Shown piece after piece: positions 5,288 to 38,106 of a stretch of DNA of 64,000 nt. Position numbers and translations under genes: made by a program. The stretch comes from an uncultured Candidatus Saccharibacteria bacterium (lineage in GTDB: Bacteria; Patescibacteriota; Minisyncoccia; UBA6257; 2-01-FULL-56-20): NCBI GenBank assembly GCA_964505005.1, contig CAZDFQ010000001.1:50458-114457 (forward strand). Direction: 5' to 3'. Under the pieces are notes generated by a model. It was not told where the DNA came from, made no database searches, and saw nothing but the letters and a program-made list of their open reading frames with translations. How positions within the stretch are numbered: the first letter of the stretch is position 1; every line of letters begins with the position of its first letter.

Positions 5288-5367
5288 ACTTATTAATTAT
5301 AGCAAAAATATCTGCAGCCCTTATAGTTTGCTACTTTTTAAAAACCATAGCGGTGAAGCCGTGGCTA

Positions 5368-5497
5368 AAATTTCTAATTTCTAAACCCTAATTTCTAAAC
5401 AATCTCAAAATCAAAATCTCAAAACATTTTGGATTTTAAACATTTGGATTTATTTAGAGATTAGAAATTAGGATTTAGAGATTAATTATTCGGATGC
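5368..5497. repeat. composite palindromic intergenic repeat (family 1)
   Basis: ctaatttctaaaccctaatttctaaacaatctcaaaatcaaaatctcaaaa ... tttggatttatttagagattagaaattaggatttagagatt. Confidence 0.7.
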
Positions 5498-6382: not shown

Positions 6383-7802
6383 CTTGTGGTGGGCCTATCG
6401 AACCGTAATAGCGGATAAAAATAATCAAGCCGCTGTAGTAGATGATTAGAAGAAACCAGCTGAAATTCATTTTTAGCGGCAACTGGAGTTTTGAAAATAA
6501 TTTTATTACCAACAATTCGTATTTAAGAAGAATATTAACGACCTGGCTGAACAAAAAAGCGATGGGGTTCAATAGCAAGGCAGCGGCGGCCAGCGAAAAT
6601 CCCAAAAACATCGTCAGGGGCACGAATTCCAGAATCAAAATGTTGGCGAAAATGCCGGTTAAAGAAAATTGGTTGAAATTCTGGATTAAAATCGGCACCA
6701 CGGCCAGTTGGGCCGAAAGCGTTGTCAGAGCATTGTCTTTCCAAGAAAGAAAATTGGCGGTGGCTGATTCGTCTTTAAGCCGGAAAAATTTTTTAAAAGC
6801 CGGCTCCAAATAGACAATGCCGAGCAAGCTGGCAAACGACAGAATAAAACCGAGGTCGAGAATTACGACCGGTTCAAAAAAAGCCATAAAAGCCGCGGTC
6901 AGAGCAATGCCGTTTCTGAAACTGGGCAACCTTCCGGTTTCTTTGGCCAAAAGCGCAAGGAATCCCATTAAGGCGGCCCGGAGCACTGAGGCTTCGGCGC
7001 CGACCATCATCACGAATAAAAAAATAATCAGGCCGGTCAGAAGAAATTTGAGCCGTCGCGAAAAAAATCTGCCGAAAACAGCGGCTGTAGCAATGACTAA
7101 AATGGTGATATTGTAGCCGGAAAGGGCCACCAAATGAGTGGTGCCGCTTAAAGACATCTGTTGTTTTAAATCATTGGAAAATCCGCCCCGCCAACCAAAG
7201 GTCAACCCGCTGAGTAAAGCCGCGCTGTCGGTTGATAAAAAATTGTTGAACCTGGAAACCAATAGTTTTTTCAGTTTAATCAATTTTTCTTTCAGCCAAA
7301 AACCGCGATGAGCAGCGGAAGTTTCGATTTTCGGGAAAAGCAAAATCGGCCCTGATGTTTGGTCAGCCGGCGGTTCGATTATCCCCTCTCCCTTCACGAC
7401 ATCACCGTAATTTATTTCCGGCGACAGCGAAGCGAAAACCGAAACCCCGCCTTTTAATGGCGGCAAAAGTTCTATTTCCAATTTCTGGAATTTTTCTCCC
7501 AGCGAGGGTTCGCTGCTGACGATGCCGGAAAAAAGAATTTTTTTATTGTAGACGATATTCCGGCTGTCCCCCAGCGCCGTATTGTAAAATCGGTAATAAA
7601 AAATTCCGAAGAGAAACAGAAAAAATACTAAGATGAGAGTTTTCGGATTGAAGCGCTGCCGAATTATCTTCAAAAAATAAAAGAGCGGTGCCAACAAAAT
7701 TAAGTATAAACTTATCCCCAAACCGGCGATAACCAGCCCTAATAAAAACGAGATTGCGCCGTAAAATAGTATGTCGCTGGCTGCCGGTTTATCGTTTTCC
7801 AT
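6375..7802 (-). CDS. comEC: ComEC/Rec2 competence membrane-channel domain protein (split comEC, part 1)
   Basis: 475 aa, multi-TM, ComEC competence domain-like (…LSGTTHLVALSGYNITIL…). Confidence 0.7.
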   Translation of the reverse strand: MENDKPAASDILFYGAISFLLGLVIAGLGISLYLILLAPLFYFLKIIRQRFNPKTLILVFFLFLFGIFYYRFYNTALGDSRNIVYNKKILFSGIVSSEPSLGEKFQKLEIELLPPLKGGVSVFASLSPEINYGDVVKGEGIIEPPADQTSGPILLFPKIETSAAHRGFWLKEKLIKLKKLLVSRFNNFLSTDSAALLSGLTFGWRGGFSNDLKQQMSLSGTTHLVALSGYNITILVIATAAVFGRFFSRRLKFLLTGLIIFLFVMMVGAEASVLRAALMGFLALLAKETGRLPSFRNGIALTAAFMAFFEPVVILDLGFILSFASLLGIVYLEPAFKKFFRLKDESATANFLSWKDNALTTLSAQLAVVPILIQNFNQFSLTGIFANILILEFVPLTMFLGFSLAAAALLLNPIAFLFSQVVNILLKYELLVIKLFSKLQLPLKMNFSWFLLIIYYSGLIIFIRYYGSIGPPQDG

Positions 7803-7885: not shown

Positions 7886-8602
7886 TCATCTCTTATATTT
7901 CGTTTGTTTTTCCCTATACTCGGCTATTTTTTTGTGGTTGCCGGTTAAAAGCACTTTGGGAACCAGATATTTTTTGCCTTTGTAAACAAAGACTTCCGGC
8001 CGCGTATAATGAGGGTATTCGAGCGCCTGTCTGCTGGAAGCGCTTTTCTCCTTTTTAACGAGCCCTCCGAAATATGATTCCTCTCGGAGCGATTCCCATT
8101 TGATGGCGCCGGGCAGGAGACGGGTGACGGCTGAAATAATAATCATGGCCGCCACATCGCCGTCGGTCAAAACATACGGCCCGATGGAAATTTCTTCTGC
8201 TTTCAGTATCTTTTTAACTCGCTCATCAATTCCTTCGTAGCGGCCGCTTATTAAAATAAGGCGGTCGTACTTTTTCGCCCAATCATACGCCATTTTTTGC
8301 GTAAATTGCTTCCCTTTTGCGGAAAAAATGATTATTTTAGTTTTCCGCCGCTTTTTAAATTTCTTTGATACTTGATAAGTGATATGTGATACAGTTCGCA
8401 GTATTGGCTCAGCCATCAACACCATACCGGCACCGCCGCCATAGGGTTTATCGTCGACTTTGCGGTGTTTATCGGTCGAGAAATCGCGAAGATTATGAAC
8501 GGCGACTTTAATAATCCTTCCTTTTAAAGCGCGTTTCAAAATGGATTTATCAAAATAAGAATCGAAAATATTCGGGAAAATGGTGATAATATCAAACTGC
8601 AT
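7886..8602 (-). CDS. trmD: tRNA (guanine37-N1)-methyltransferase TrmD
   Basis: 238 aa; MQFDIITIFPNIFDSYFDKSILKRA... canonical TrmD N-terminus. Confidence 0.9.
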   Translation of the reverse strand: MQFDIITIFPNIFDSYFDKSILKRALKGRIIKVAVHNLRDFSTDKHRKVDDKPYGGGAGMVLMAEPILRTVSHITYQVSKKFKKRRKTKIIIFSAKGKQFTQKMAYDWAKKYDRLILISGRYEGIDERVKKILKAEEISIGPYVLTDGDVAAMIIISAVTRLLPGAIKWESLREESYFGGLVKKEKSASSRQALEYPHYTRPEVFVYKGKKYLVPKVLLTGNHKKIAEYREKQTKYKR

Positions 8603-8740: not shown

Positions 8741-10897
8741 TTATTGCTCGCCGGCTATTTTTTTAAGCGATTCGTTTATCGCCTGACGGAGTTCTTCGAT
8801 GTTCACTTTTTCCGGATGTTCTTTTGGTTTAGCCAAATAATCTTTTACGATATTCAGATGATTGGGGAAGAAGTCGGCTAGCGAAGTTATCTCTTCGGCT
8901 GTAAAAACTTTTATTTCTTCACCTTCATCGCCGATTTTCTTGAGTGGCGGCAGTTCCGGAAGCTCGGCCTTAAAAAACATTATCGTATGGTTGCCTTTCT
9001 CATTTTCATAAATCATCTTCAAGTTCTCGGGCTTTAACAAAATCCCGGTTTCTTCTTCAATTTCTCTGATGGCTGCTTGTTCGGCAGTTTCTTCTCCTTT
9101 GCTTCGGCCGCCGGGCAGTTTCCAGTAATTGGGCGTTGGTTTCTTCGGGTCTTTTATCAAAGGGACTCCTTCGGGAGTGATAATCAAGACCGCCACGCTG
9201 GCGCCCTTCACCTTTTTGCGTTCGGTTTGCGAAAGTGAAGCCAAGGAAATTCTTTCTTTGCCTTTCGGAGCAGCTGGCGAAACTTCTTCAAGACGTTTAA
9301 CTGGCTTCCGAAATTCAAATTCAATACCCAGATTAGCCAAATCATAAGCAAATTCCTCGGCCAGTTTCTTTTCCGCTTTTTTAGCTGAAACCGGCTGGAG
9401 TTTACCGGCTTGAATTTTGGCCAGGCATTCGTCGCAATAAACCGGCCGGCCCTTTTGGGGTTCGAACGGAACCTTGGTCGATTTCCCGCAGATTGAGCAA
9501 ACAGCCGGATACATTCTGGCCGTAGTTGGTTCAGCCAGCATCCCGCTCCAGCGGTTGATTTCTTCTTCGACCATTTCGCTGGGTCGGGCATAGATTTTCC
9601 TCGAGGTTTCAATGATGCGCCCGGCGATTTCCGGAGAGCCGGCGACTTTGAAGGGCGGCAGGGTTTTTGCCGAAAAAGGACGGCAGGTGATGCCGTTGAC
9701 CATTAACTTTAAATAGACGCTGAAATTGGGCAGATTGACCATATCCTGAATCACGAATTCCGGCTCGAATTCTTTTTCGAGATAATCGGCGTCAGCCGCG
9801 CCTATCCGGAAGAGCACCATAGTGCCGACATTGCCGAAAACCGCGTCGCGAACCCGGGTGGAAACGTCGGTGATGAGCTGACCGATGTACTGGTGGGCCA
9901 CAATGAGATTCAGCCGGTATTTTCTCGCTTCGGAAAGAATGCCGGCGAACGAGTCCGTGGCAAAATTCTGGAACTCGTCAACATAAAGATAGAAATCAGC
10001 GCGTTCGTCTTCGGGAATTCTCACCCGTTCCATTGCCGAAAGCTGAATTTTGGTAATCAGCATCGCGCCCAAAAGCGAAGAATTGTCCTCGCCGATTCTT
10101 CCCTTGGACACGTTGACCAGAAGAATTTTTTTGGAATTCATTATCTCGAAAATGTCAATCGTGCTTTTCTCCTGGCCGACAATGTTTCGAATCATGGCCG
10201 TGGAAAGGAACTGGCCGACTTTGTTCTGAATCGGGGCAATGGCTTCGTTGCGGAACTGGTCCCGCCACTGCTCGTACTCGTTCACCCAAAAGGCCTTGAT
10301 GACCGGGTCTTTGACATTGGCAATAATTTTCTGCCGGTAATCCTTGTCAACCAGAATCCGGTTGATGCCGAGCAGGGTCGAGCCGGGATTTTCCAAAAGC
10401 GCCAGCACCGCATTGTTCAGAATGTATTCCATTCGGGCTGACCAGACATTGGCCCAGATTTTCGTGAAAATGCCCATCAAACCCGAAGCCACCAGATGTT
10501 TGTATTTCGGGTCTGGCAATTCAAGAATGTTAAAACCGATGTGGAAATCCGGGTCAGCCGGATTGAAATAAATCACATCCTTGGCCCGTTCCTCGGGAAT
10601 TTTCTGGAGCAACCCCTCAACCAGTTCGCCGTGCGGGTCGATGACGCAGACGCCTTCGCCGTTAGCGATGTCCTGAACAATCATATTGTTGAGAAGCGCG
10701 GTCTTGCCGGTGCCGGTTTTGCCGACGACATACATATGCTGCCGGCGGTCGTTCCGTTTGATGCCGAACAACTGGTTGGTGTTCCGGAAATCGGTTCGGG
10801 CGAAATAAACAACGTTTTTTTGGATGTCAGCGGTCATCGGAGTATGCGAAAGCCTTAACGAATAGGCACACTCGAAATTAAATTTATAATAACACAA
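8741..10897 (-). CDS. VirD4/TraD-like (FtsK/HerA superfamily) P-loop ATPase fused to a CxxC zinc ribbon and a C-terminal NUDIX hydrolase domain
   Basis: 718 aa; Walker A HMYVVGKTGTGKTALL; DEFQNF and AHQ motifs of T4SS coupling-protein-like ATPases; CSICGK...YCDEC zinc ribbon; NUDIX box GGRSKGEETAEQAAIREIEEETG near the C-terminus (coordinates ~8900-9100). Probable true start at internal M21 (MTADIQ..., ~10837). Confidence 0.8.
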   Translation of the reverse strand: MCYYKFNFECAYSLRLSHTPMTADIQKNVVYFARTDFRNTNQLFGIKRNDRRQHMYVVGKTGTGKTALLNNMIVQDIANGEGVCVIDPHGELVEGLLQKIPEERAKDVIYFNPADPDFHIGFNILELPDPKYKHLVASGLMGIFTKIWANVWSARMEYILNNAVLALLENPGSTLLGINRILVDKDYRQKIIANVKDPVIKAFWVNEYEQWRDQFRNEAIAPIQNKVGQFLSTAMIRNIVGQEKSTIDIFEIMNSKKILLVNVSKGRIGEDNSSLLGAMLITKIQLSAMERVRIPEDERADFYLYVDEFQNFATDSFAGILSEARKYRLNLIVAHQYIGQLITDVSTRVRDAVFGNVGTMVLFRIGAADADYLEKEFEPEFVIQDMVNLPNFSVYLKLMVNGITCRPFSAKTLPPFKVAGSPEIAGRIIETSRKIYARPSEMVEEEINRWSGMLAEPTTARMYPAVCSICGKSTKVPFEPQKGRPVYCDECLAKIQAGKLQPVSAKKAEKKLAEEFAYDLANLGIEFEFRKPVKRLEEVSPAAPKGKERISLASLSQTERKKVKGASVAVLIITPEGVPLIKDPKKPTPNYWKLPGGRSKGEETAEQAAIREIEEETGILLKPENLKMIYENEKGNHTIMFFKAELPELPPLKKIGDEGEEIKVFTAEEITSLADFFPNHLNIVKDYLAKPKEHPEKVNIEELRQAINESLKKIAGEQ

Positions 10898-10931
10898 AAT
10901 AGAAAATTAGAACAGCTCTACATAATAATAT

Positions 10932-12677
10932 TTAAGCCACCTCGTTATTGTAACAGCTTTCGCAATAAACATTTTTATATTTGTCAGGATTAAAAGTTAA
11001 TTTTATATCAACTCCGCATCTTGGGCATTTTCGGTCGTAAAATTTCAGACGCAAATCATAAATTTCCCGAAAGTATTGCAACCGGACAAGAGGGTGTTCT
11101 CTCGGCAATGCCAGATTATAGCGGCGATAGAATGAAAGTTCGTAGGAGGTCATCTTGAAATACTTATTGTTCTTTTCGTCGAAAATCGTTTTTCCCAAAA
11201 TGTCATCGGGTGCATCTTTAATGTCCGCCGGCAGTTCTGTTGATTTTATAATCTCACTTTGTACTTCGCTTTCTTGTAGAGGAATTTCGGATATGTCATA
11301 ACCATAACGACCGGCGTTTTCATAATCACGGAAACCTGGATAGCCAGCCGCCAAAGAAATTTTATAGGGGACAGATACAAGCTTAGGCGGGAAAAATTCG
11401 CCGTATTCGCTACTGCCAAGCATAGTAGATTTTATTTTGTCCACTAATTTCCAGTATTCATCCTCGTCATATTGCTTATTCAAAATACAAAATGATTTAT
11501 TGTTCAGGCCGATGCACCCGAAAATATCGTGGCAATTGCGACAGAGTTCGGAATATTCCGCGTTGCGGCAGTTATCCATTTGAAACGAGAAATGAACGTT
11601 GTAATTATCTCTCGTGCTGACAGTCATTAATTCATAACACAACTCCCCGCCCCCGCCGCCACTCACATCGTAAGAATCTTTATAGCCTAAGACACCGATG
11701 GTGTAGTTCACGTTTTGACACTCAGTGACATAATTGCACCAGTAACAATCTTTGGAATTCTCGATGTAATCGCCGACCGAATTGACCGAACGGAAATTGC
11801 GGTCCGGCTTATGAAGCGCCTCGCTTTTTATTTTTTTGAATTCCTTAATATATCGCTGAAGAACGTTGTAATCTCCTAAATTAATCTCTTTTAATTTCTT
11901 CTCGTATTCTTCCTTAGAAAGTTGCTGATTGCGGAAGTAGTATTTCTTATTCCTTAAATTTGAGGACATAAAACAATGCTCGCAATTCCGACAATCATAA
12001 AGAAAATAGCTTTCCAGACAATCCCGCGATTGCTCACAGAAAAAACAGCGATAGGAGTTGAATAAATTCTGGCAGGCATAACAAGTATCGCAATTCCAAA
12101 GCGATTCGCAGTCCACGCAATCTTTGCTGGCGTCGCAACACTCAAAATAATAGAGATTTTCTCCGCTTAAGGTGTCGAAGGTGAGATAACAATTTTTCAG
12201 ATTGGTTGAGGTATTGGTGTAGTCGCTGTTAATATTAGTTGTATCGGTCATAAGATTGGACCTGGGAACTTCGCGGCGCAACTTCTCGAACTGGCTCATA
12301 AAATTTTTGCTCTCGTCCCAGTTTCTTCCAAATCCCAGCGGGTCCCATTTGTCCGAAAACCAAACTTGATGTTCATATATTTTAAAAGGCGTTTGCGGGG
12401 GATAGGCAGCAATTATTAACTCTCCAGAATAAGCTGAGGGGACTTTAAAAAGTGAATGGACGTCCATGTTCGCAAGGCGTCTGCGGCAACGCTCTGCCGG
12501 ACTCAAAGTCGGCAGCGGCACGCGGATTCTTTTGTAGAATTGAATATCCTCGAGCCGGACATAGAATTTCTCGCCGGAAAACCGGCAGGTGCGCCACTGC
12601 CCGCCTTTTTCATCCAAAACTAAACTGGCAAAATATTTATCCAGGGCCTTATCAAATTGCGGCGTCTTAGAAATCAT
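10932..12677 (-). CDS. cysteine-rich repeat protein with C-terminal zinc ribbon (hypothetical)
   Basis: 581 aa; many degenerate repeats of the kind NCxxC/DCxxC (…CDASKDCVDCESLWNCDTCYACQNLFNSYRCFFCEQSRDC…) and terminal CPRCG...CESC; lies between two VirD4-like paralogs. Confidence 0.55.
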   Translation of the reverse strand: MISKTPQFDKALDKYFASLVLDEKGGQWRTCRFSGEKFYVRLEDIQFYKRIRVPLPTLSPAERCRRRLANMDVHSLFKVPSAYSGELIIAAYPPQTPFKIYEHQVWFSDKWDPLGFGRNWDESKNFMSQFEKLRREVPRSNLMTDTTNINSDYTNTSTNLKNCYLTFDTLSGENLYYFECCDASKDCVDCESLWNCDTCYACQNLFNSYRCFFCEQSRDCLESYFLYDCRNCEHCFMSSNLRNKKYYFRNQQLSKEEYEKKLKEINLGDYNVLQRYIKEFKKIKSEALHKPDRNFRSVNSVGDYIENSKDCYWCNYVTECQNVNYTIGVLGYKDSYDVSGGGGGELCYELMTVSTRDNYNVHFSFQMDNCRNAEYSELCRNCHDIFGCIGLNNKSFCILNKQYDEDEYWKLVDKIKSTMLGSSEYGEFFPPKLVSVPYKISLAAGYPGFRDYENAGRYGYDISEIPLQESEVQSEIIKSTELPADIKDAPDDILGKTIFDEKNNKYFKMTSYELSFYRRYNLALPREHPLVRLQYFREIYDLRLKFYDRKCPRCGVDIKLTFNPDKYKNVYCESCYNNEVA

Positions 12678-12759
12678 ACTTAAGATAAAATCCTAATTTC
12701 TAAACTCTAATTTCTAAATAATCCGCCGGGTGGCGGAAAATGACTAAACCCCAAAACTA
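12678..12759. repeat. composite palindromic intergenic repeat (family 1) with central CCGCCGGGTGGCGG hairpin
   Basis: aaatcctaatttctaaactctaatttctaaataatccgccgggtggcggaaaatgactaaacc. Confidence 0.7.
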
Positions 12760-15408
12760 TTAATGATTCTTTTGTCGCTTCAGCCACTCAGCGATATTTC
12801 GGCCGTCTCTTCTAGCCCAGGCGGCATTGGAGCGGATTTTTTCCAAAACCTGCTGAATGGTTCGTTGGGCGGCTGGCGCGGGATTTTTTCCGAAGAATCG
12901 CTCTATTTCCTCAGCGCATTTCTCGTCATTAAAATGGCTGAAAGGCCTGATTATTCTGGACAGAAGGTGCCCGCCGCCGCCATAAATCTTGAGGATTTTC
13001 CGCCAGTTAGCCTTCAGGAATTCCCAAGCCAATGGTCGGCTATGAGGATTGGCCAGCAAGCCAGCCATAAATTGAGGAAAATCCTGAGGCCGGACTTTCT
13101 CGCTCAAAGAAAACTCGAGGCAATCCCGAAGAAGGTTTTTATCCTGAAAACAAGTCAGCGCTCGGCCCAGCCGGTTTTTCTCTTCCTGAAGAACTTCTTC
13201 GACATATTTTCGTTTGAGGATTTTGTATTCGTGGGTCGAGCCGTTTTCAGCTGTCAGATTGTAAACCGCGCTTCGCAAATCAGGGTCAATATTTTTCCCG
13301 CTCGCAAACAACTTTTCGGCTTTTCCGATAGTGGCCGGATCGCCATAATGGCCGTAGTTCCGCAAAATCAAAGTTCGCAATAAGATTTTAGTATGACTGT
13401 CTTTGGGAGTTTTGCGCCAGCCGACTCTTTCAGCAATGCCTGAAAAAATCTCCCGGCCTAAGGCCTTATAATCTTCGTAGAATTTCTCACCGCTTAACAA
13501 AGAATCGAGCGTTTCCAAAGACGAAGCCATCTCGGTCCAAACCGGGTAATCAGTTTCGTTTTTATAAGCTAAGCTGAGCTCCAGAGCTTTGGTCGTCTCT
13601 AATTTGCCGGCTTCAGCCAAAGAAAAAGCGTCTCGGATTACCCCCAGGCGGTCAACCGTAGCCAATCTTTTCTTTTCAATCGGCTTGGTCAGCGCCGAAA
13701 GCAAATTCTCGGAGTAGGCCGTCCGGTAAACTCCGCTTTCAGCGGCGTTGAATTTCAGCCATTTGATTCGCGGTTCGATTAAAATTTTCCTCTTCTTGGC
13801 GAATAGGAACTTTTTCGGTTTGGCGCTTTTGTCGGTTATGAATTCAACGGGAATCGGCCAAGAGGACCTATAGGACTTATTGGTCTTATAGGCCCTACTG
13901 GAATAAAATCTTTCTTGTTTCAGCAACAATCGGCCGCCGCTTTCCCTAACGCTGACCAAAGGATAGCCGGCTTTCTGAGTCCAGGCCCTCATTATTTTCC
14001 TGACCGGCTGGCGGGAAATCTCTTCCAAAGCCAGCCATAAATCGTCAGTCGTGGCATTGGCATAGGCGTGCTTTTTCAGATAATGCCTTAGTCCTCGGCG
14101 GAAATTTTCTTCGCCCAATAAATTGGCCAGCATTTTTATCACCGCCGCGCCCTTGGAATAGCTGACCGCATCGAAAATCTCGCTGATTTCATTCGGATGA
14201 TGAACTTCGACCTCGATGGGATGGGTGTTTTGCAAAGCATCCAGCTCCAAAGCCTGACCCAGTTCCCGCCAGACAAACTGCGTCCAAATATCCCATTCAG
14301 GAAACAAATGGTCAATCGCCAGATACTCAACATAAGAAGCAAAGCCCTCGTTAAGCCAGAGATGAGTCCACCATTCCATGGTCACCAGGTTGCCGAACCA
14401 TTGATGAGCCAACTCGTGAGCGATGACCAGGGCCACCCATTGTTTATTAATTGTTGATGAATGGGCCGGGTCAACCAGCAGGGCGGATTCCCGATAAGTG
14501 ACCGCTCCCCAATTCTCCATGGCTCCAGCCGCAAAATCCGGAATGGCAATCAAGTCCAAAGCCGGCAAAGGATAAGGAATCCCGAAATAATCGCTGAAAA
14601 AAGAAAGGGTCTTAGCCGCGCACTCCAGAGCGAATTCGGCCTGATATTTCTTACCCGGCGTGGTGAACACTCTGACTTTTATCCCCTCTTTGGTTTTCTT
14701 CTCAATAGATTCAAAATCGCCGACAATGAAAGCCACCAGATAAGTTGACATTTTGGGAGTCGGCGCAAAGCGGACGATTTTATAACCTGATTGGTATTCT
14801 TTTATTTCAGTTTCAACCGTGTTGGAAATGGCGGTGGTGCAGCCGGGTATCAGTAAACTTATCTCGAAGACTGCTTTTTGAGCCGGTTCGTCGAAACAAG
14901 GGAAAGCGCGTCTCGCATCAGTGGCCTCGAACTGGGTGGTAGCAATGAATTTTTCTTTTCCCTGGTGCCAATAGCGGCTGCGGTAAAACCCCGCCATCTG
15001 GTCGTTTAAAAGGCCGCGAAACACCAATCTCAATCTGCCTTCCCCTTTTTTCAATGATTTAGGGAAAATAAAGCTAACGGTTTCTTTCCTGCTGTTATAG
15101 ATTATTTTTTTTGGAATAATTTCTTCGCCAGCTGAATGGAGAATGGCGCTTTCTATCTCAATGTCTTTTGAGTGGAGAGTAATTACTCTGACTGACTTTT
15201 CGATGTTCAACAAAATGGTTTCTTCGCCTTCGAAAGTAAAATTGTCCAAGTCCGGCTTCAGAAGCAGCTCGTATTTCTCCGGCTTGATGTGGCGGGCTAA
15301 TCGGATAGATTCGTTCATAGATAATAGTGGTTGACTTCTTGAGGAGCCGTATTCTCGCTTTGGCGCACCTGAAGAGTTTATGATATAATTTATTTTACTG
15401 TTCCCCAA
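12760..15408 (-). CDS. pepN: M1 family aminopeptidase N
   Basis: 882 aa; GAMENWG exopeptidase motif and HELAHQWFGNLVTMEWW...E zinc-binding motif; likely real start at internal MNESIRLA (~15318). Confidence 0.9.
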   Translation of the reverse strand: MGNSKINYIINSSGAPKREYGSSRSQPLLSMNESIRLARHIKPEKYELLLKPDLDNFTFEGEETILLNIEKSVRVITLHSKDIEIESAILHSAGEEIIPKKIIYNSRKETVSFIFPKSLKKGEGRLRLVFRGLLNDQMAGFYRSRYWHQGKEKFIATTQFEATDARRAFPCFDEPAQKAVFEISLLIPGCTTAISNTVETEIKEYQSGYKIVRFAPTPKMSTYLVAFIVGDFESIEKKTKEGIKVRVFTTPGKKYQAEFALECAAKTLSFFSDYFGIPYPLPALDLIAIPDFAAGAMENWGAVTYRESALLVDPAHSSTINKQWVALVIAHELAHQWFGNLVTMEWWTHLWLNEGFASYVEYLAIDHLFPEWDIWTQFVWRELGQALELDALQNTHPIEVEVHHPNEISEIFDAVSYSKGAAVIKMLANLLGEENFRRGLRHYLKKHAYANATTDDLWLALEEISRQPVRKIMRAWTQKAGYPLVSVRESGGRLLLKQERFYSSRAYKTNKSYRSSWPIPVEFITDKSAKPKKFLFAKKRKILIEPRIKWLKFNAAESGVYRTAYSENLLSALTKPIEKKRLATVDRLGVIRDAFSLAEAGKLETTKALELSLAYKNETDYPVWTEMASSLETLDSLLSGEKFYEDYKALGREIFSGIAERVGWRKTPKDSHTKILLRTLILRNYGHYGDPATIGKAEKLFASGKNIDPDLRSAVYNLTAENGSTHEYKILKRKYVEEVLQEEKNRLGRALTCFQDKNLLRDCLEFSLSEKVRPQDFPQFMAGLLANPHSRPLAWEFLKANWRKILKIYGGGGHLLSRIIRPFSHFNDEKCAEEIERFFGKNPAPAAQRTIQQVLEKIRSNAAWARRDGRNIAEWLKRQKNH

Positions 15409-15419
15409 TCAGAAGACCA

Positions 15420-15929
15420 ATGGCTGATGTCTTAAAAATAATCTTTGACCTCATCATCTGGATTTTCGTGCCGGTTATTTTAATAACCGTGATTTGGTTT
15501 TTGGCGTTTGCTTACAAAAGGACAGAAATCAAACGGCAAAAGTCCGCCCTGCAAGCTGGTTTCTGGGCCGGCCTGATGCTTTCCGTCATTTTCCTAATCT
15601 ATCAAGTAAATATTTTTTTGAAAATAGGCTTTCCGCAAAATGACATTTTCCAGGGGTTCAAGCTCTGGCTTTCACTGACCAGCGCGCTGGTTGTTTTTAT
15701 TCTAGCTCTTGGCGGCAAAAAAATTATTTCTCCGGCCTTAAGCGGCTGGCTGAATCTCCTCTTCACTTCAATAAGCTTATCGGCGTTCTTCCATTATATT
15801 TTTATCCGCACTTATAACGATGTCCTTCTTTCAGTTATTCTTGGCGCCGCTTTTGGTTTTCTGACGCACCTGGCGGCTTCGCCGTCGTCGCTAAAGGAAT
15901 TTTTCGGCCATCACCAATCGACGTTGTAA
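15420..15929 (+). CDS. hypothetical polytopic membrane protein
   Basis: 169 aa, ~4 hydrophobic helices; only plus-strand gene in a long minus-strand block. Confidence 0.45.
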   Translation: MADVLKIIFDLIIWIFVPVILITVIWFLAFAYKRTEIKRQKSALQAGFWAGLMLSVIFLIYQVNIFLKIGFPQNDIFQGFKLWLSLTSALVVFILALGGKKIISPALSGWLNLLFTSISLSAFFHYIFIRTYNDVLLSVILGAAFGFLTHLAASPSSLKEFFGHHQSTL

Positions 15930-16113
15930 AAATGCAAAATGACCCGCCCGCCTTGCTTCGCAACGCGAAGCGGGCAGGCAATTAAAAATGTCAAAAATGT
16001 TTAATTCCAAAATCCGACTTTAACATTTGGTAATTTTTCAATTTTGCCTTGTCATTTTGGATTTTTCCGCCAAAGGCGGATCAGCCTTGGGCTGAGATTT
16101 TTGATTTTTGAAT

Positions 16114-17559
16114 TTATATCAGCGGTTCCGGTTCTTCGGGGATTTTTTCTTTCTTTTTGCCTTCGATAATGGCTTTTTCTTGGAGCGTCCGGATGATACT
16201 GGCTTCTTCCTCGGCAATCAGTCTTTTCGCCGCCGCCACGGTCATGGTATATTTCTGCCGCGACTGCTCGATTATTCTTCTCCGATACGACTGATGAGCG
16301 GCGGGCAGAACCTTCAGTGTTTCGGCTGAAAACGGGTCGTAGGTCTCGCCGTCAATGGTCATCTTGATGTAAAACTCCTGAGTGGCGAGATTAATCATAT
16401 CTTTTATATCGAACACCGGCGCCATCTCCGGTTTGAGCTTTACGGCGTCATCGCCGCCGACCCGGAAAACAATAATGGCGCCGCTGTTGCCAAGCACCGC
16501 GGCTTGAACGCGCGGCAAAAGCTGCCCCAAGTATTGATGAGCCACGGTCATACAGATGCCGTATTTGCGGAGCTCGGTCAGCATATTTTCAAAAGTTTCG
16601 GTAACCAAGTTGTGGAACTCGTCCACATAAAGATAAAAATCCTCGCGTTCGGCTTCGGCTAAATTAGCTCTGGCCATGCCGGCCTGTTTTATTTTGGTTA
16701 TGAACATCGAACCGAAAAAGCTGGAATTCTCCTCGCCCAATCTCCCTTTGCAGAGATTTATCAGGATTAATTTTTTTTCATTTATAAATCTTTCCAACTC
16801 GATTTTATTTTCTTTTTGACCGAAGATGTTCCGAAGAAGGGGGTCGGAGAAAAACTGGCCGAGTTTATTGACCAGCGGGATAATGGCGTCGGTATCGAAT
16901 TTCTCCGACCAATCGGCAAATTCAATGGCCCAAAACCGGCGGACCATATCGTCTTCGATGTGTTCAATGACTTTCTGGCGGTAATTCCGGTCGGTCAATA
17001 TAGAAATCATTCCCCGCATGGTGGCCTGAGGATAATCAAGAAGCGCCAGAATCGTAAAACGAAACACATGCTCAAGTCGAGGCGTCCAGTTGGCGCCGAA
17101 CTGTCTTTCGACCACTTCAATCAAACCCTGAGCCAGTTGATGTTTAAACATCGGGTCAACATTGACCAACGGATTGAAAGAAACCGGATGCTCGACATCG
17201 CTCGGGTCAATCAAAACCACATCCTCAATCCTTTCCTCGGGAATAAAATCGAGAATGTTATTGATGGTATCGCCGTGAGGGTCAATCAAACAGAGACCGT
17301 GGCTGTAAGCAACATCCTGACGAACCAGAAGTTCCAAAAGCTTGGACTTACCGACTCCGCTTTTGCCGACAATATAAACATGCCGGCGCCGATCGCCTCT
17401 TTTGATGCCGAAAATAAATTTCTTTTCTTCGAGGGCCGCCACATAATTTGTCCGACCGATAAAAGAAACATCGGCCGGATTAACCCGACCGTACACCGGC
17501 AGTTCCGGCGGCGGCGGCGCATATTTTATGATTTGGATTCTTCCTTCCCGAGGAGCCAT
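16114..17559 (-). CDS. VirD4/TraD-like P-loop ATPase (paralog of the N-terminal 480 aa of 8741..10897)
   Basis: 481 aa; FGIKRGDRRRHVYIVGKSGVGKSKLL Walker A, DEFHNL, AHQ; collinear similarity to the 718-aa protein. Confidence 0.8.
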   Translation of the reverse strand: MAPREGRIQIIKYAPPPPELPVYGRVNPADVSFIGRTNYVAALEEKKFIFGIKRGDRRRHVYIVGKSGVGKSKLLELLVRQDVAYSHGLCLIDPHGDTINNILDFIPEERIEDVVLIDPSDVEHPVSFNPLVNVDPMFKHQLAQGLIEVVERQFGANWTPRLEHVFRFTILALLDYPQATMRGMISILTDRNYRQKVIEHIEDDMVRRFWAIEFADWSEKFDTDAIIPLVNKLGQFFSDPLLRNIFGQKENKIELERFINEKKLILINLCKGRLGEENSSFFGSMFITKIKQAGMARANLAEAEREDFYLYVDEFHNLVTETFENMLTELRKYGICMTVAHQYLGQLLPRVQAAVLGNSGAIIVFRVGGDDAVKLKPEMAPVFDIKDMINLATQEFYIKMTIDGETYDPFSAETLKVLPAAHQSYRRRIIEQSRQKYTMTVAAAKRLIAEEEASIIRTLQEKAIIEGKKKEKIPEEPEPLI

Positions 17560-17729
17560 ATCTTAAGAAAATCCTAATTTCTAAATCCTAAATTCTAAAT
17601 AATCTCAAATGTTCTAAATCAAAATAAAAAATATGTTTATAATTTTGGATTTTGGTCATTTGTCCGCCATCTGGCGGATTATTTAGAAATTAGATAAATT
17701 AGATATTAGGATTTAGGATTTTTTATTAT
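17560..17729. repeat. composite palindromic intergenic repeat (family 1) with central GTCCGCCATCTGGCGGA hairpin
   Basis: aatcctaatttctaaatcctaaattctaaataatctcaaat ... gtcatttgtccgccatctggcggattatttagaaattagataaattagatattaggatttagg. Confidence 0.7.
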
Positions 17730-18209
17730 TTATATCGCTCCGACTTCATTCAAGAAGGCTTCATAATCATCAAGGACTCGGGCCGCTTCCTCAGAAGAAA
17801 TTTGGAAATTCGGTTCATGGACAAGTTGATTGCGGAGGCGATGGGCCCGCCAGAGCCGTTCCAAAGTAGTGAAATCATCCGGAGATAATTGCTCTATTCT
17901 ATCAGCCATGTGCTGGCCTCTGATTCCCATACGGCGCATAATGTCGTCGGCGAAATTATCAGCTTCGATAACGGCCAGTTTTATCGACCCCGGCGACCCA
18001 GCCGCGGCTCTTTTCAAAATGGCTTCCCAACGTTCCTTTAAGGCGACGCTCCCGAGAGTGAATATTCTTTCTTCGGCTTTGAAGAATTTGAATCTTGGAT
18101 AGAATTCCCGACTGTTTACGAAAAGAAAAACCAAAAGACCAAAAATAATTAAGTCGGCGAGGATGAAAATTATTTTCAGAATATTGTAAAGAGAAGAAAA
18201 CCAATCCAT
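17730..18209 (-). CDS. hypothetical membrane-anchored protein (N-terminal TM; C-terminal RxxxxxxHE HEPN-like motif, weak)
   Basis: 159 aa; LYNILKIIFILADLIIFGLLVFLF TM; motif RAHRLRNQLVHE. Confidence 0.4.
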   Translation of the reverse strand: MDWFSSLYNILKIIFILADLIIFGLLVFLFVNSREFYPRFKFFKAEERIFTLGSVALKERWEAILKRAAAGSPGSIKLAVIEADNFADDIMRRMGIRGQHMADRIEQLSPDDFTTLERLWRAHRLRNQLVHEPNFQISSEEAARVLDDYEAFLNEVGAI

Positions 18210-18354
18210 AAAAATAATAAATCCTAAACCCGAAATCCTAATTTCTAAATAATCCGCCAGGTGGCGAACAAATGACCAAAATCCAAAATTAAAAAGTTTT
18301 TAGAATTTGAAATTAGAATTTTGAATTTGTTTAGGATTTAGAGATTAGAGATTT
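18210..18354. repeat. composite palindromic intergenic repeat (family 1) with central CGCCAGGTGGCG hairpin
   Basis: aatcctaaacccgaaatcctaatttctaaataatccgccaggtggcgaacaaatgaccaaaatcc... Confidence 0.7.
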
Positions 18355-19707
18355 TTATTTATATTTCTCTATTTCTTCTTCGCCGCCGAAAACGGCCGTG
18401 CCCGCCGGCGGACCGGCTTTGCGGCTTTCGACCCGGCGGATGTGCGGCGCGGTCAGCACCAAATAGGTCGGCGGATGGAAAATGGTGGCCAGACATTCGG
18501 TATTCATGGCAAAACTTCGGGAAGTAAAATTCCAATTTAAAAGATGAGAAGTCAAAAGCCGACCCATAAATGTTTTGGGTGGTATTTCCCGGCGGCGGTA
18601 ATTGTAAAGAATTCTTGATTTGCGGTATTCATTTCTCCGCCGCGGGAAGAGATGAGGCCATTTCCAGAATCGAACGCGGGTGCTCATTGTTTCATTCCGA
18701 CTCAAAGAATTTAAATCCAGAGCGGCAAATTGATTGAAACAAGCGGTGATGGCCCGGCGAGGGAACGAATCGTAATAAAGGGATTTGGGTGAAAGATAGA
18801 TGAAGCGAATCAAAGTATCAAAAGCCGGTTTTGACAAATTGTTTTCCACGGCTTTCAAGACATCGGTCTCCCCGGGAGTTCTCATAAAAGAACGGAAAAA
18901 TTGCGTCCCGGCGTTCTGTTCCGGTTTTACGACTTCAAATTGCGGCAGCGGTCCGCCGTGAAATGAGGTGGCGGTTTTTGGTTTGGCGGCTTCGGCCGCG
19001 GCTTTTTTAAATCTCAACTCTTCAATCAATCCATCCCATTTATCGCGCCATTCCCTTGCTTTCGGAGCAATCAAAAACTGAATGCAGACAATCTCTTCTT
19101 TTTTAATCGTCGCCATAAATTCCAGAAAAGCGGCCATGGGGTCATATTGCTTTTCTTCTTCTGGGGCTTCAAACTCCGAATAAACTTTTATGGGGTAAGC
19201 TTCTTCGCGGTCCAGTTTCATCTCCGAACCCCATAAGTCATAGCCCTGCTCATGTAATTCTTTAATATTAGCCGGTAATCTCTCGATATAATCATCAATT
19301 TCAACAATTTCAATTTCCGGATAATAAGAAAGAAAAGCCGCTTCCAAAAGCCCTTTCTGAAGATTATAGCCTCTTACATAAAAGTGCGTTTCGCCGCCGA
19401 AGCTGGCTATTTCCAAGGCATACCAGCGGGTTATTTCGCCGTCCCACCATTTTTCGGCAATGTCGGCCGGCGCATTCCTTAAAGCGTGAAAAGAAGTAAA
19501 GACCTGCTCCATGGCCCGCGGATTTTTTCTGATTTCCCGCGGCATTTTCAATTCCAAAACCACCCAATTGAGCTTTTTCTTGAAAATTTCCTGGCGCCAA
19601 TAAAGCCAAGTGGAAATGCCGGCGGGCAAAAGAATGACAAACGCCCAAAACCACCAACTTAAAGACAGAAAGTTCAAAAGAACATCGGCAATAAAGTTGA
19701 AAGGCAT
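18355..19707 (-). CDS. hypothetical protein with N-terminal TM helices and large soluble domain (partner gene of VirD4-like ATPase block)
   Basis: 450 aa; no motif recognised; co-directional and tightly spaced with 17730..18209 and 16114..17559. Confidence 0.5.
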   Translation of the reverse strand: MPFNFIADVLLNFLSLSWWFWAFVILLPAGISTWLYWRQEIFKKKLNWVVLELKMPREIRKNPRAMEQVFTSFHALRNAPADIAEKWWDGEITRWYALEIASFGGETHFYVRGYNLQKGLLEAAFLSYYPEIEIVEIDDYIERLPANIKELHEQGYDLWGSEMKLDREEAYPIKVYSEFEAPEEEKQYDPMAAFLEFMATIKKEEIVCIQFLIAPKAREWRDKWDGLIEELRFKKAAAEAAKPKTATSFHGGPLPQFEVVKPEQNAGTQFFRSFMRTPGETDVLKAVENNLSKPAFDTLIRFIYLSPKSLYYDSFPRRAITACFNQFAALDLNSLSRNETMSTRVRFWKWPHLFPRRRNEYRKSRILYNYRRREIPPKTFMGRLLTSHLLNWNFTSRSFAMNTECLATIFHPPTYLVLTAPHIRRVESRKAGPPAGTAVFGGEEEIEKYK

Positions 19708-19845: not shown

Positions 19846-20877
19846 TTATCTTCTTATCTGGTAGGTCCCGTCCGGTTTGCGCAAAAAGAAATTTTTGTTT
19901 TGGAGATTCACCAGTATCGTATTGGGCTTGAAGAAGCGCTCTTTCTGGACAGAAGCAATCACTTCTCTTGTCCGCATTGGTCCGTTTTCTTTCAGGATGC
20001 GTTTGATAACTTCCCGGGCCGTTCCCGGTTGATAACCGTGTTCAGCCAACCCGTACATTCCCCGGCCAACTAAGACGAAGCGTGGGTCTTTAATCAGTTC
20101 ATTGTGAACCGTGGCTTCGAGAACACGCTTTTGGACTCCTTTTTCATTTATGAGTCGAGCGAGGCCAAGAAAATGAAGTGGTTTCTTCTCTTTTTTCAGC
20201 ACCAGATAAATGTGTTCCCGGACCGCTATTGGTTTGATTTCCGGCCATTCAGTCAAACCAACATCGCCGTAATAATTAACATGGAATTTTTTGGAAATTC
20301 TTAAATAACTTTCCGCTACCGCTGTCTCCAGCCGGCGCTTCCTGATAAAGGCCTGGAAATATTCTTGGTAATTTGGAGTTGCTGACAAAATTTCTTCTTT
20401 TCTTGGCTGCAAGAAATCAACCCATTCTTCAATGAATTTTATCGCTTTTTCCAAAGAATTTTTATCGAGGTAGTAAAAAAACCAGAAATTTTTATCCTCG
20501 GGATAAACAAGAGAGGCCGCTGTCGTCTCATGAAGAAAGTCAAGATGGTTATGGTTTAAATCGTTTATAAGAGCGCGCTGATGTTCCAAAAGGTCCTCTT
20601 CCCTTGAGACGCCTCCGCTATCTCTGATGTATTTTCGGCTCCGCTCCGCAAATTCGGATATCAACGAATGGGAAAGAGCTTTCTCTTTCAAAATCTTGAG
20701 GCCGCTTGATTCAATCTGGCGGATTCGCTCTCTGGTGATCCCGTATTCTTTACCCAAAGCCGCCAGGGTCTGGGGTCTGTCATAAGGGTCAAGGCCAAAA
20801 CGACCGGCCAAAATATTTGTCTGGCGGTCATCAAGATAAACCCAGAGCGGGCTGAGAATTTTGTTAATTGAAGCCAT
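19846..20877 (-). CDS. protein with N-terminal sigma-70 region-4-like HTH followed by an unknown domain
   Basis: 343 aa; ILAGRFGL...TLAALGKEYGITRERIRQIESSGLKILKE is a textbook sigma-70 r4 helix-turn-helix but placed at the N-terminus. Confidence 0.55.
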   Translation of the reverse strand: MASINKILSPLWVYLDDRQTNILAGRFGLDPYDRPQTLAALGKEYGITRERIRQIESSGLKILKEKALSHSLISEFAERSRKYIRDSGGVSREEDLLEHQRALINDLNHNHLDFLHETTAASLVYPEDKNFWFFYYLDKNSLEKAIKFIEEWVDFLQPRKEEILSATPNYQEYFQAFIRKRRLETAVAESYLRISKKFHVNYYGDVGLTEWPEIKPIAVREHIYLVLKKEKKPLHFLGLARLINEKGVQKRVLEATVHNELIKDPRFVLVGRGMYGLAEHGYQPGTAREVIKRILKENGPMRTREVIASVQKERFFKPNTILVNLQNKNFFLRKPDGTYQIRR

Positions 20878-21478: not shown

Positions 21479-22414
21479 TTATCTCCACAAAAAAAGAAGG
21501 GGGCTGGCGACGAAAATCGAGGAATAAATGCCGGTGGTCACGCCGACGAGCAATGTCAAAACAAAGTATTGGAGAGAGGTCGGACCGGCGAAATAAATCG
21601 CCAAAAGGACCAGAATCAGAGTCAAAGAAGTATTAATGGAGCGGGCTATTGTCTGATTTACGCTTCGATTAATCAGGGTTCCGAAATCGGTTCTGCTGCC
21701 GCCTGCGGTGAGTCGCGTCGAACCGCGGTCCAAAGAAAGATTCTCCCTGATGCGGTCGAAAACCACGATGGTATCATGGACCGAAAAACCCATCACCACC
21801 AGAATGGCCACCACGAAATTGCTGTCGATTTCTATGCCGCTGTAACGGCCGAGCACGGCCAGCAGTCCGGCCGGGATGGCGACATCGTGAAAAAGGGTAA
21901 TTAAAGTAATTAGGCCGTATTTCCATGAGCTGACCGGTTTAGACACCTTTCTGAAAGCAAAAGCGATGTAAAGAGAAATAGCAACGAGCACAAGGACGAT
22001 GGCCGTTAAAGCGCTTCTCTTCAATTCGCCGCTCACCGACGGCCCGATTGACCAAAAGTTTATCTCTTCGAACGAAGGATATTTATCTTTCAAAACCTGC
22101 AGGAATTTCTGGTGGTCGGCTTCGCTGATTATCGGCAGCCGCGCCAGAAAACTGTTGTCGGTCAAATTATAAGTGATGGTGGCCTCGGCAATGCCGAAAT
22201 CCGTTTTGAAAAGCCGGTTGAGGTCGTTGAGCGAAGGCGCTTGGGAAATTTTCCCGCCTGAGGCGGGTCCGCCTCGGGCGGAAAATTGCCAGAGCGTGCC
22301 GCTCGTGAATTCAATACCCGGCCGCAAGCCGAAAACAAGCATGACGACAATCGCCGCTCCGACCAGAACAGCGGAAAGACCGAGGAAAATGTTTTTGTGG
22401 CCGATGATATTCAT
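21479..22414 (-). CDS. secF: protein translocase subunit SecF
   Basis: 311 aa; SecF topology and conserved C-terminal TM bundle; downstream of secD. Confidence 0.9.
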   Translation of the reverse strand: MNIIGHKNIFLGLSAVLVGAAIVVMLVFGLRPGIEFTSGTLWQFSARGGPASGGKISQAPSLNDLNRLFKTDFGIAEATITYNLTDNSFLARLPIISEADHQKFLQVLKDKYPSFEEINFWSIGPSVSGELKRSALTAIVLVLVAISLYIAFAFRKVSKPVSSWKYGLITLITLFHDVAIPAGLLAVLGRYSGIEIDSNFVVAILVVMGFSVHDTIVVFDRIRENLSLDRGSTRLTAGGSRTDFGTLINRSVNQTIARSINTSLTLILVLLAIYFAGPTSLQYFVLTLLVGVTTGIYSSIFVASPLLFLWR

Positions 22415-36798: not shown

Positions 36799-36896
36799 CC
36801 ACATAATCCGGATACCCGAATTTATCCGAATGATACGAATACTGCTTATTTATTTGGGGCATTCGGATGTTATTCGGATTCATTCGGATTATGTGG
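36799..36896. repeat. ~100-bp family-2 hairpin repeat, inverted partner of 31391..31487
   Basis: ccacataatccggatacccgaatttatccgaatgatacgaatactgcttatttatttggggcattcggatgttattcggattcattcggattatgtgg. Confidence 0.65.
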
Positions 36897-36935
36897 TCTT
36901 CTCTATTTTGCGACATTTATGATAAAATGTATTGG

Positions 36936-37944: not shown

Positions 37945-38016
37945 GTGGACGGTGCAGGGATTGAACCTGCGACCTCTCGCATGTGAAGCGAGCGTTCTGC
38001 CACTGAACTAACCGTC
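37945..38016 (-). tRNA. tRNA-Val (anticodon CAC)
   Basis: GGACGGTTAGTTCAGTGGCAGAACGCTCGCTTCACATGCGAGAGGTCGCAGGTTCAATCCCTGCACCGTCCA; anticodon stem CTCGC/GCGAG, loop TTCACAT. Confidence 0.8.
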
Positions 38017-38106
38017 CGATTGAGTGCCACGTCTGCCCGTCATAGCTTTACGCGAAGACGGGAGCTAAGAACGCTATGAAAACATCTTATATAATATTAT
38101 CATATG

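Follow-up and report, generated by a model that had tools for sequence, protein, structure and literature searches.

What does an ATPase resembling a type IV coupling protein (T4CP) do on a bacterial chromosome, among housekeeping genes? The question is raised by a block of genes in contig CAZDFQ010000001.1 (assembly GCA_964505005.1), of which we analyzed the 64,000 nt from position 50,458 to 114,457 (the window; all coordinates below are window positions). Two VirD4/TraD-type P-loop ATPases are encoded there on the - strand, ATPase 1 at 8741-10837 and ATPase 2 at 16114-17559, and the best-named homologs put the organism in Patescibacteria, close to Candidatus Liptonbacteria. A preliminary description, made from the sequence alone, had likened the block to HerA-linked defense systems that pair an ATPase with an effector, and had also offered DNA translocation or competence. 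Our comparisons give good support to another view: the block is a lineage-specific elaboration (split, duplicated and NUDIX-bearing) of a chromosomal module conserved across Patescibacteria. The conserved core, also well supported, is a DUF8128 membrane protein plus an ATPase, next to a sigma4/HARE-HTH gene and secDF, a unit both larger and older than the one first described.

Domains were called by Pfam and NCBIfam profile scans, in which a match counted when it exceeded the gathering score or cut-off. By this measure ATPase 1 matches TrwB_AAD_bind (E 1.3e-13; 51.1 bits versus a cut-off of 20.5), DUF87, T4SS-DNA_transf (30.6 bits versus 20.1) and TraG-D_C (24.2 versus 22) in Pfam, with the TrwB_AAD_bind alignment running unbroken from aa 47 to 368. 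ATPase 2, of 481 aa, likewise passes the Pfam cut-offs of TrwB_AAD_bind (29.7 bits), T4SS-DNA_transf (25.7) and TraG-D_C (24.1). The two proteins are 41% identical over 463 aa (E 9e-127), and the motifs that had been quoted as shared, FGIKR.DRR.H.Y.VGK.G.GK, YVDEF and VAHQY, are all seen in their pairwise alignment; they are thus, as had been proposed, true paralogs of the VirD4/TraD branch of the FtsK-HerA superfamily. Walker A (10700-10723 in ATPase 1, 17344-17367 in ATPase 2; GKTGTGKT and GKSGVGKS) and YVDEF are intact in the pair, with Walker B at 9971-9994 and 16615-16638, all on the - strand. Among proteins of solved structure, TrwB (E 6e-6) and DotL are nearest in sequence. The TraD/VirD4 equivalog models of NCBIfam match far below cut-off, the VirB4-type models are sub-threshold (VirB4_plasma 23.8 bits versus 590, TrbE 22.5 versus 1020, conju_CD1110 19.1 versus 325), and the Pfam model CagE_TrbE_VirB does not match the ATPases. 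No hydrophobic or transmembrane (TM) segment was found in either protein. ATPase 1 probably starts at the ATG at 10837 (698 aa), where its homologs start; counting from the TTG at 10897 it would have 718 aa.

The two paralogs end differently. ATPase 1 carries a CxxC-x17-CxxC treble-clef zinc finger (9425-9499, -; aa 461-494) that matches zf_Tbcl_2 in Pfam (E 1.3e-15; 57.3 bits versus 27) and TIGR04272 in NCBIfam (E 1.2e-16; 60.1 bits versus 36), and a comparison of the tails of ~80 orthologs found it kept in most of them. Members of this domain family from Methanosarcina bind zinc (PMC12704099). Beyond the finger, the tail comparison identified the motifs LANLGIEFEF (9311-9340, -) and ISLASLS (9230-9250, -) and, at the C terminus, the family-wide motif VNIEELRQAINESLKK (8759-8806, -). 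ATPase 2 has no zinc finger and ends in PEEPEPLI (16117-16140, -); its orthologs, including those in loci L011-L028, also lack the finger and end in E(A/P)EP(M/L)I past a variable acidic linker. This conserved, acidic-hydrophobic end looks like a docking motif.

Neither ATPase thus has the N-terminal TM domain of a T4CP, and the anchor appears to be supplied by a separate gene. The 450-aa protein encoded at 18355-19707 (-) is assigned to DUF8128 (PF26449) by precomputed Pfam annotation, and its AlphaFold2 model (pLDDT 84.5, pTM 0.81) shows a hydrophobic helical anchor at the N terminus and, on the cytosolic side, an alpha/beta domain. When this model was searched with Foldseek, ten TrwK/VirB4 chains ranked first; the next structural matches of DUF8128 are EccE3 and EccE5, and a sequence-profile search against the PDB returned no match. 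Because DUF8128 has no Walker motifs, and because TrwK/VirB4 was the only P-loop ATPase among the structural matches, the likeness must be to the N-terminal domain of VirB4, whose fold is thus predicted for the cytosolic part of DUF8128.

In some relatives the two parts form one polypeptide. We compared the window with 80 loci from species-representative genomes, taken with 10-kb flanks and numbered from L001, and mapped the window proteins onto each. Fused paralogs form a further class, of 790-1020 aa: L044 (147-2717) encodes an 856-aa DUF8128-ATPase fusion that has T4CP-type Pfam matches and aligns to DUF8128 by hhalign (probability 98.4%, E 8e-15), and L001 (1-613) encodes another fused protein, of 792 aa. 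The fusions, together with the modeled fold, indicate that the DUF8128/ATPase pair reproduces the layout of VirB4 (TrwK), an N-terminal domain plus a motor, and the predicted hydrophobic anchor recalls VirB3-VirB4 fusions. There is precedent for such a stand-alone protein beside an ATPase in TrsD of the pGO1-type Gram-positive type IV secretion system (T4SS), a relative of the VirB4 N terminus; in Patescibacteria, TrsD stands at the T4SS locus near dnaA (PMC12102498). The pair described here differs from VirB4, however, in that T4CP models and TrwB/DotL give its motor better scores than VirB4 models do, and in having no VirB3, VirB6 or VirB8 neighbors in the window or the related loci; the bona fide VirB4/TrsD locus lies elsewhere, near dnaA. 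EccC-EccE of the ESX type VII secretion system (T7SS) and FtsK/SpoIIIE are arranged in a similar way, with a small membrane protein or domain that keeps a hexameric motor of the FtsK-HerA superfamily at the membrane.

The gene order around the pair is conserved far beyond close relatives. The dominant arrangement among the 80 loci is secD - secF - sigma4/HARE-HTH - DUF8128 - ATPase. It is seen across many named groups, among them Paceibacteria-type lineages and Doudna-, Moran-, Uhr-, Falkow-, Buchanan- and Nealsonbacteria. In 61 of the 80 the ATPase comes after DUF8128, with a gap mostly below 30 bp (4-30-bp spacing); the sigma4/HARE-HTH gene is directly upstream of DUF8128 in 50, and the secD/secF family lies upstream of these genes in 36. 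Median identity to the window protein is 61% for the ATPase, 49% for SecD, 42% for SecF, 35% for sigma4/HARE and 29% for DUF8128, and ATPase 1 orthologs are 54-87% identical across Patescibacteria classes. In the window, secD (22661-23911, -; SecDF_P1_head, SecD_SecF_C and SecD_1st in Pfam) and secF (21479-22414, -; SecD_SecF_C, E 1.1e-49) are the upstream neighbors of the module, followed by the gene of a 343-aa protein (19846-20877, -). This last had been described as having a sigma-70 region-4 helix-turn-helix, which Pfam bears out (Sigma70_r4, aa 15-65), but its HARE-HTH domain (aa 219-279) had been missed. Downstream genes are variable and of housekeeping type (MnmA, AlaRS, PGK, EF-P, a DHH phosphoesterase), with SecA, DnaK and DnaJ recurring nearby. 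Five loci (L019, at 3990-5402, and four others) encode a ~470-aa protein with Lamin Tail Domains right downstream of ATPase 1; such domains often occur in extracellular DNA- or membrane-associated hydrolases.

Linkage to the DNA-uptake channel is more restricted. ATPase 1 is followed by trmD (7886-8602, -) and by comEC in two overlapping genes, the channel part (6375-7802, -; Competence and DUF4131) and the metallo-beta-lactamase part (5513-6382, -; Lactamase_B), identified by Pfam. The preliminary description had set the ATPases beside trmD and comEC, which holds for the window; across relatives, the linkage is limited to a few close, Liptonbacteria-like ones. In the window, L001, L003 and L009, trmD-comEC comes right after ATPase 1; in L007, L014 and L026 comEC is within 3-4 kb, and it is absent from the remaining loci. 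The split of comEC is kept in L001, L003, L007, L009, L014 and L026 and is thus not a sequencing frameshift.

A T4SS is missing from these surroundings. Neither tblastn nor Pfam scans of open reading frames (ORFs) found VirB4, a relaxase or another T4SS gene in the 64-kb window, and none of these was among the recurrent families in the flanks of the 80 loci. The earlier statement that T4SS core genes are absent therefore stands, as does the suggestion that the block is not a conjugation system; its surroundings are of housekeeping type. What is conserved in the neighborhood, a check that had been proposed, is the linkage of DUF8128, ATPase, sigma4/HARE-HTH and secDF.

Proteins of this kind have been counted before. 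In a survey of 3,035 Patescibacteria genomes, VirB4 was present in 2,417, and 5,713 VirD4-type T4CP homologs were found in 2,918 (96%, about two per genome), of which 148 were near virB4; exaptation of the T4CP is raised there as a possibility (Quinonero-Coronel et al. 2025, PMC12102498). The family described here would correspond to these orphan T4CPs, because its Pfam signature and copy number match. The module is thus of a kind already reported, and the split, duplicated and NUDIX-bearing form in the window is new. Literature searches on DUF8128 and on TraD/TraG ATPases of the candidate phyla radiation (CPR) turned up no description of the module beyond that survey; a search on CPR FtsK shows only that FtsK is mentioned for Saccharibacterium TM7x, and we therefore do not propose that the module replaces FtsK.

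Genetic data from S. epibionticum bear on the same family. Its T4SS is essential and has no recognizable coupling protein, and its comEC is dispensable for growth and required for transformation (Wang et al. 2023, PMC10633639). In the transposon sequencing (Tn-seq) of that study, SEML1_0294 (Sigma70_r4 plus HARE-HTH) is essential; directly after it comes SEML1_0293, of 921 aa with TrwB_AAD_bind at aa 402-719, which is classed as non-essential, though its read counts drop about four-fold over the time course (PMC10633639). A second paralog, SEML1_0142 (1019 aa, P-loop at aa 381-800), is essential (PMC10633639). By domain content and position, SEML1_0293 appears to be the module in its fused form at a syntenic site; SEML1_0142 and SEML1_0293 both belong to the fused paralog class, of which one member is thus essential in this species and the other is not.

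The duplication that set the two ATPases apart is confined to part of the phylum. Genes of the ATPase 2 type are restricted to the sub-clade in which ATPase 1 shares at least ~67% identity with that of the window, and the ATPase 2 orthologs have a median identity of 75%. Single-copy orthologs elsewhere are 60% identical to ATPase 1 and 42% to ATPase 2, and in a distance tree ATPase 2 forms a separate, long-branched clade. A lineage-specific duplication, after which ATPase 2 stayed with DUF8128 and ATPase 1 kept the zinc finger and tail, is well supported by these patterns. The simplest state is seen in L005 and L006, where DUF8128, a 159-aa protein, ATPase 2 and ATPase 1 stand in tandem; L003 has the gene order of the window but no NUDIX domain, and ATPase 1 - Cys-rich - ATPase 2 cassettes recur among loci.

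These cassettes contain the most distinctive partner of the ATPases, the 581-aa Cys-rich protein (10932-12677, -). It is indeed built of cysteine repeats (29 Cys, 8 CxxC) and is predicted to be cytosolic. An N-terminal domain leads into a Cys-laddered beta-solenoid, which is followed by a helical domain and, at the C terminus, by a CxxC-x17-CxxC zinc finger like that of ATPase 1, zf_Tbcl_2 (28.9 bits versus 27 in Pfam; 27.5 versus 36, below cut-off, in NCBIfam). No signal peptide or TM segment was found in it. The family has >4600 members of ~580 aa, all annotated as hypothetical, and occurs in the same sub-clade as one to six tandem paralogs, either next to ATPase 1 or in the interval that separates the two ATPases. 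That these proteins joined the cluster in this lineage is well supported.

Two small membrane proteins complete the set. The 159-aa single-pass protein (17730-18209, -; TM aa 4-34) is inserted between DUF8128 and ATPase 2 in this clade only; its putative HEPN-like C-terminal domain has an AHRxRNxxVH motif (17817-17846, -) of the HEPN-type RNxxxH form, conserved in L003, L005, L006 and L014, and matches Pfam HEPN_Swt1 weakly (E 0.01; 16.5 bits versus a cut-off of 27.5). The 169-aa multi-pass protein (15420-15929, + strand) has several hydrophobic segments and no family match in the domain scans; it is a clade-specific neighbor of the ATPases, with homologs that adjoin ATPase 1 or ATPase 2 in L003, L008 and L009. 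That the 159-aa and 450-aa proteins are TM-anchored, by N-terminal hydrophobic anchors in both, and that TM partner proteins belong with the ATPases, agrees with the preliminary description. We do not consider pepN (M1 aminopeptidase; 12760-15408, -; Peptidase_M1, ERAP1_C and Peptidase_M1_N) part of the module: it is an intervening housekeeping gene, and an M17 peptidase fills its slot in the syntenic locus L003.

The feature that first drew attention, the NUDIX domain, is a minor lineage-specific event. It occupies 8840-9205 (-; aa 565-686) in the tail of ATPase 1 and matches Pfam NUDIX (E 1.5e-16; 61 bits versus 21.1), and its box G-x5-E-x7-REUxEExGU, GRSKGEETAEQAAIREIEEETGI (9041-9109; aa 597-619), is complete. 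In a search with ATPase 1 in which at least 8000 proteins were scored, nearly all of the best 120 homolog clusters, whose architecture we read, are an ATPase plus zinc finger at 65-83% identity, and only four carry NUDIX: the window's own and three others (P0002-P0004, 78-79% identical). These three come from JGI, Logan, ENA and NCBI assemblies and share both the architecture and an intact NUDIX box; P0002 is present on five contigs (JGI, Logan and ENA samples) with the gene order of the window. Such recurrence in independent assemblies excludes an assembly or frameshift artifact, the objection raised when the fusion was first described as unusual, with apparently intact catalytic residues; unusual and intact it is. 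The NUDIX domains of the four clusters are ~66% identical to one another.

Alignment of fusions with NUDIX-less relatives shows a block of ~135 residues between the tail motifs ...ISLxxL... and K(V/I)DIxELRxAIxESLKK. None of the non-fusion relatives among the 80 loci has a NUDIX gene less than 10 kb from the ATPase, and this, together with the terminal motif that follows the domain, points to an internal insertion; for the same reasons we rejected a fusion with a downstream gene. Thus, of the fusion as first described, both the zinc ribbon and the NUDIX domain are real, but NUDIX is inserted in the tail and not appended to it. Pfam found no globular domain in ten other long ATPase tails, all from other lineages. 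The inserted domain is closest to free-standing NUDIX proteins of 130-150 aa, with identities of up to 55%, and its relatives in the PDB are of the MutT/NUDT18 type; NCBIfam NUDIX equivalogs all fall far below cut-off, and one relative is labeled 'ADP-ribose pyrophosphatase YjhB' in IMG (annotation only). It shares the full box with such small MutT/YjhB-type hydrolases and differs from them in lying within a translocase ATPase, in its disordered tail. The sequence comparisons thus identify it as a rare, in-frame insertion into a disordered tail in a handful of Liptonbacteria, its likely source a free-standing small NUDIX hydrolase.

What, then, might the conserved module do? We favor a two-piece, membrane-docked translocase of DNA or another nucleic acid that works independently of the T4SS, and put the probability of this reading at roughly 0.35. 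DUF8128 would dock a hexameric motor on the cytoplasmic membrane, as the VirB4 N-terminal domain does with VirB3; the motor would translocate nucleic acid without the T4SS encoded elsewhere in the chromosome; and the zinc finger and tail motifs, as putative docking elements, would recruit or handle the substrate together with the Cys-rich zinc-finger proteins. Independence is suggested by the survey, in which T4CP-like proteins are in more genomes than VirB4 and few are near virB4 (PMC12102498), and by the non-essentiality of the syntenic SEML1_0293 while the T4SS is essential (PMC10633639). DNA is favored as substrate because TrwB and DotL are the closest solved relatives and the nearest relatives are DNA-pumping coupling proteins, because the motor carries a zinc finger, and because ATPase 1 is next to trmD-comEC in four loci.

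The leading candidate role would be to pull DNA in alongside ComEC, since the reported Com components of CPR bacteria are ComEC, ComFC and DprA only, with no ComFA-type motor listed (PMC10633639). DNA translocation or competence, as offered in the preliminary description, may thus be the function. The tethered NUDIX would be an accessory that hydrolyzes a nucleotide-diphosphate-X compound near the motor, and not the point of the system. The proposed role, that of a cytoplasmic or membrane-associated ATPase aiding DNA import, resembles those of ComFA and the archaeal Ced importer ATPases. ComFA, which needs a zinc finger, is however a DEAD-box helicase of another fold, and comEC linkage here is only local; the NCBIfam model CedD matches the P-loop weakly, at 21-25 bits versus a cut-off of 600.

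Several points weigh against this reading. DNA binding, ATP hydrolysis, oligomerization and contact between DUF8128 and ATPase are predicted only. The comEC linkage, seen only in close relatives, is weak evidence; comFC, dprA and pilus genes are not linked to the module in the 80 loci, and the ComFA-less state is that of the published Com list. The proposed equivalence with the orphan T4CPs is drawn from Pfam signature and copy number. A disordered tail with docking motifs plus partner families is typical of genuine T4SS coupling proteins and so fits the chief rival equally, and the model leaves the roles of the Cys-rich, 159-aa and 169-aa proteins unexplained.

According to that rival, these ATPases are the coupling proteins that seem to be missing from the T4SS of Patescibacteria: anchored by DUF8128, they would dock on the VirB4/VirB6 machine near dnaA, with zinc finger and tail recruiting substrates or adaptors, for which the Cys-rich proteins are candidates. 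The T4CP Pfam models pass their cut-offs, as described above, and the only solved relatives by sequence are TrwB and DotL. The long, disordered C-terminal tails with conserved peptides resemble the adaptor-binding C-terminal tails of TraD and DotL, and tandem, divergent Cys-rich paralogs adjoin the ATPases. Patescibacteria T4SS loci have no linked coupling protein (PMC10633639, PMC12102498), T4CP genes are often away from virB4 (PMC12102498), and SEML1_0142 is essential, as is the T4SS. However, SEML1_0293, the syntenic ortholog, is non-essential despite that essential T4SS, and T4CP-like genes are in ~500 more genomes than VirB4. The modeled anchor is VirB4-like in its N-terminal domain and not the usual TM domain of a T4CP, and conservation is unusually high for a T4CP. 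Compared with VirD4, TrwB, TraD and DotL, moreover, the ATPases here have no linked T4SS or relaxase, belong to the core chromosome and, in ATPase 1, carry a C-terminal zinc finger. We regard this rival as a serious but doubtful alternative to a T4SS-independent translocase.

A bolder form of independence, which we think unlikely, is that DUF8128 and the zinc-finger ATPase make up an unrecognized translocation machine that is self-contained and peculiar to Patescibacteria and would stand next to VirB4 and VirD4 as a third branch, with the Cys-rich beta-solenoid/zinc-finger proteins and the small membrane proteins as dedicated partners or cargo in Paceibacteria-type lineages. Less probable still, to the point of being distinctly unlikely, is an autonomous ATPase for protein export or membrane remodeling, a minimal T7SS- or VirB4-like system in which DUF8128 oligomers, with or without the 169-aa protein, would be the membrane part and the Cys-rich proteins the cargo. 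The module is persistently found by secA, secD and secF, and the Cys-rich proteins, which lack signal peptides and TM segments, are modeled with a solenoid fold found in surface and fiber proteins. Adjacency to Sec genes may reflect inherited gene order, however, and no channel-forming component was identified; the Cys-rich family is restricted to one sub-clade while the core module is phylum-wide, and its zinc-finger ends suggest intracellular, zinc-bound proteins.

It is very improbable that the block is what remains of a conjugative element once integrated here, or that its genes are unrelated and stay together by conserved gene order. The ATPases are of a family typical of conjugative elements, and pepN and trmD are clearly unrelated passengers, but the block has no relaxase, VirB4 or integrase, its composition equals that of its flanks with no break (window GC content ~0.45, AT-leaning), and orthologs hold the same chromosomal context across classes. 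Fusions and the 4-30-bp spacing bind DUF8128 to the ATPase, and a common zinc finger and repeated cassettes bind the Cys-rich genes to the ATPases; for the DUF8128-ATPase core, this reading is largely refuted. A conjugative element was likewise rejected, tblastn having found no third ATPase paralog and no VirB4 in the window and Pfam having shown housekeeping genes in a scan of 26 other ORFs of the window.

Anti-phage defense of the HerA-ATPase-plus-effector kind, with NUDIX, and perhaps also the HEPN-like 159-aa protein with its RNxxxH motif, as effector, can hardly be right: the likeness to HerA-linked systems and to mad8 of MADS lies in the ATPase superfamily, in PADLOC matches that are weak (mad8, E 4.5e-14, partial; HerA, E 4e-7 or weaker, P-loop region only; candidate PDC-S07 on the NUDIX part, E 8.5e-10) and in the enzymatic domain joined in the NUDIX variant, whereas the module is near-universal, syntenic, strongly conserved and set among housekeeping genes, the opposite of defense islands, its enzymatic domain is a rare, late insertion found in four of 120 clusters and matched by no globular domain in any of the ten other long tails, and no nuclease, Sir2 or TIR partner is present. 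With this the ATPase-plus-effector reading of the preliminary description falls.

The coordinates and - strand orientation of all genes named in that description, and the identities of pepN, trmD and the two-gene comEC, were borne out. The block lies in a run of - strand genes from 5.5 to 24 kb, and the other ORFs scanned in the window encode housekeeping proteins, including DnaK, DnaJ, an SMC-like protein, GlmS, CysRS, DnaB, YchF, FtsW, MurG and S1.

Three further features of the window, outside the block, deserve mention. A tRNA-Phe(GAA) gene (49259-49549, -) between the S1 protein gene and cofD has its anticodon loop interrupted by a ~217-nt group I intron (Rfam RF00028, 63.6 bits at 49295-49527), and ARAGORN finds the tRNA only with introns allowed. 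Between corA and cysS lies a GC-rich (0.545) island of ~1.4 kb (52120-53440), whose ORF (52463-53248, +; 261 aa) has no Pfam match even at E<=10. Arrays with a 35-nt period flank this ORF, with ~9 units at 52122-52436 and ~5 at 53261-53437; each unit consists of the conserved blocks GGGCGAGCTGT and GGGTGACCGT with 7-9 variable bases between them, and GGGYGASCNGT occurs nine times, always in the arrays, versus 0.15 expected. The arrays have no Rfam match and are not CRISPR-like; they could be arrays of iteron- or centromere-like binding sites, or a small mobile element. Finally, a tyrosine recombinase gene (Phage_integrase and SAM-like N-terminal domains; 36867-37880, +) by tRNA-Val(CAC) (37945-38017, -) could encode XerC/D or mark an integrated element.

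Much of bacterial diversity belongs to the Patescibacteria, most of whose conserved genes lack an assigned role. Taken alone, the NUDIX insertion is a curiosity of a few Liptonbacteria. The wider comparison gives the orphan ATPase an anatomy: a DUF8128 membrane partner, fusions with it, a zinc finger and tail motifs, a position by a sigma4/HARE-HTH gene that is essential in S. epibionticum, and clade-specific partners. If the module is indeed a self-contained translocation machine, the essential SEML1_0142-type and dispensable SEML1_0293-type paralogs would put a single new machine to two uses, and in the NUDIX variant hydrolysis of a nucleotide derivative would be coupled to it. Because the module is now tied to Tn-seq genes (SEML1_0293, SEML1_0294 and SEML1_0142) in a genetically tractable species, its function becomes directly testable.

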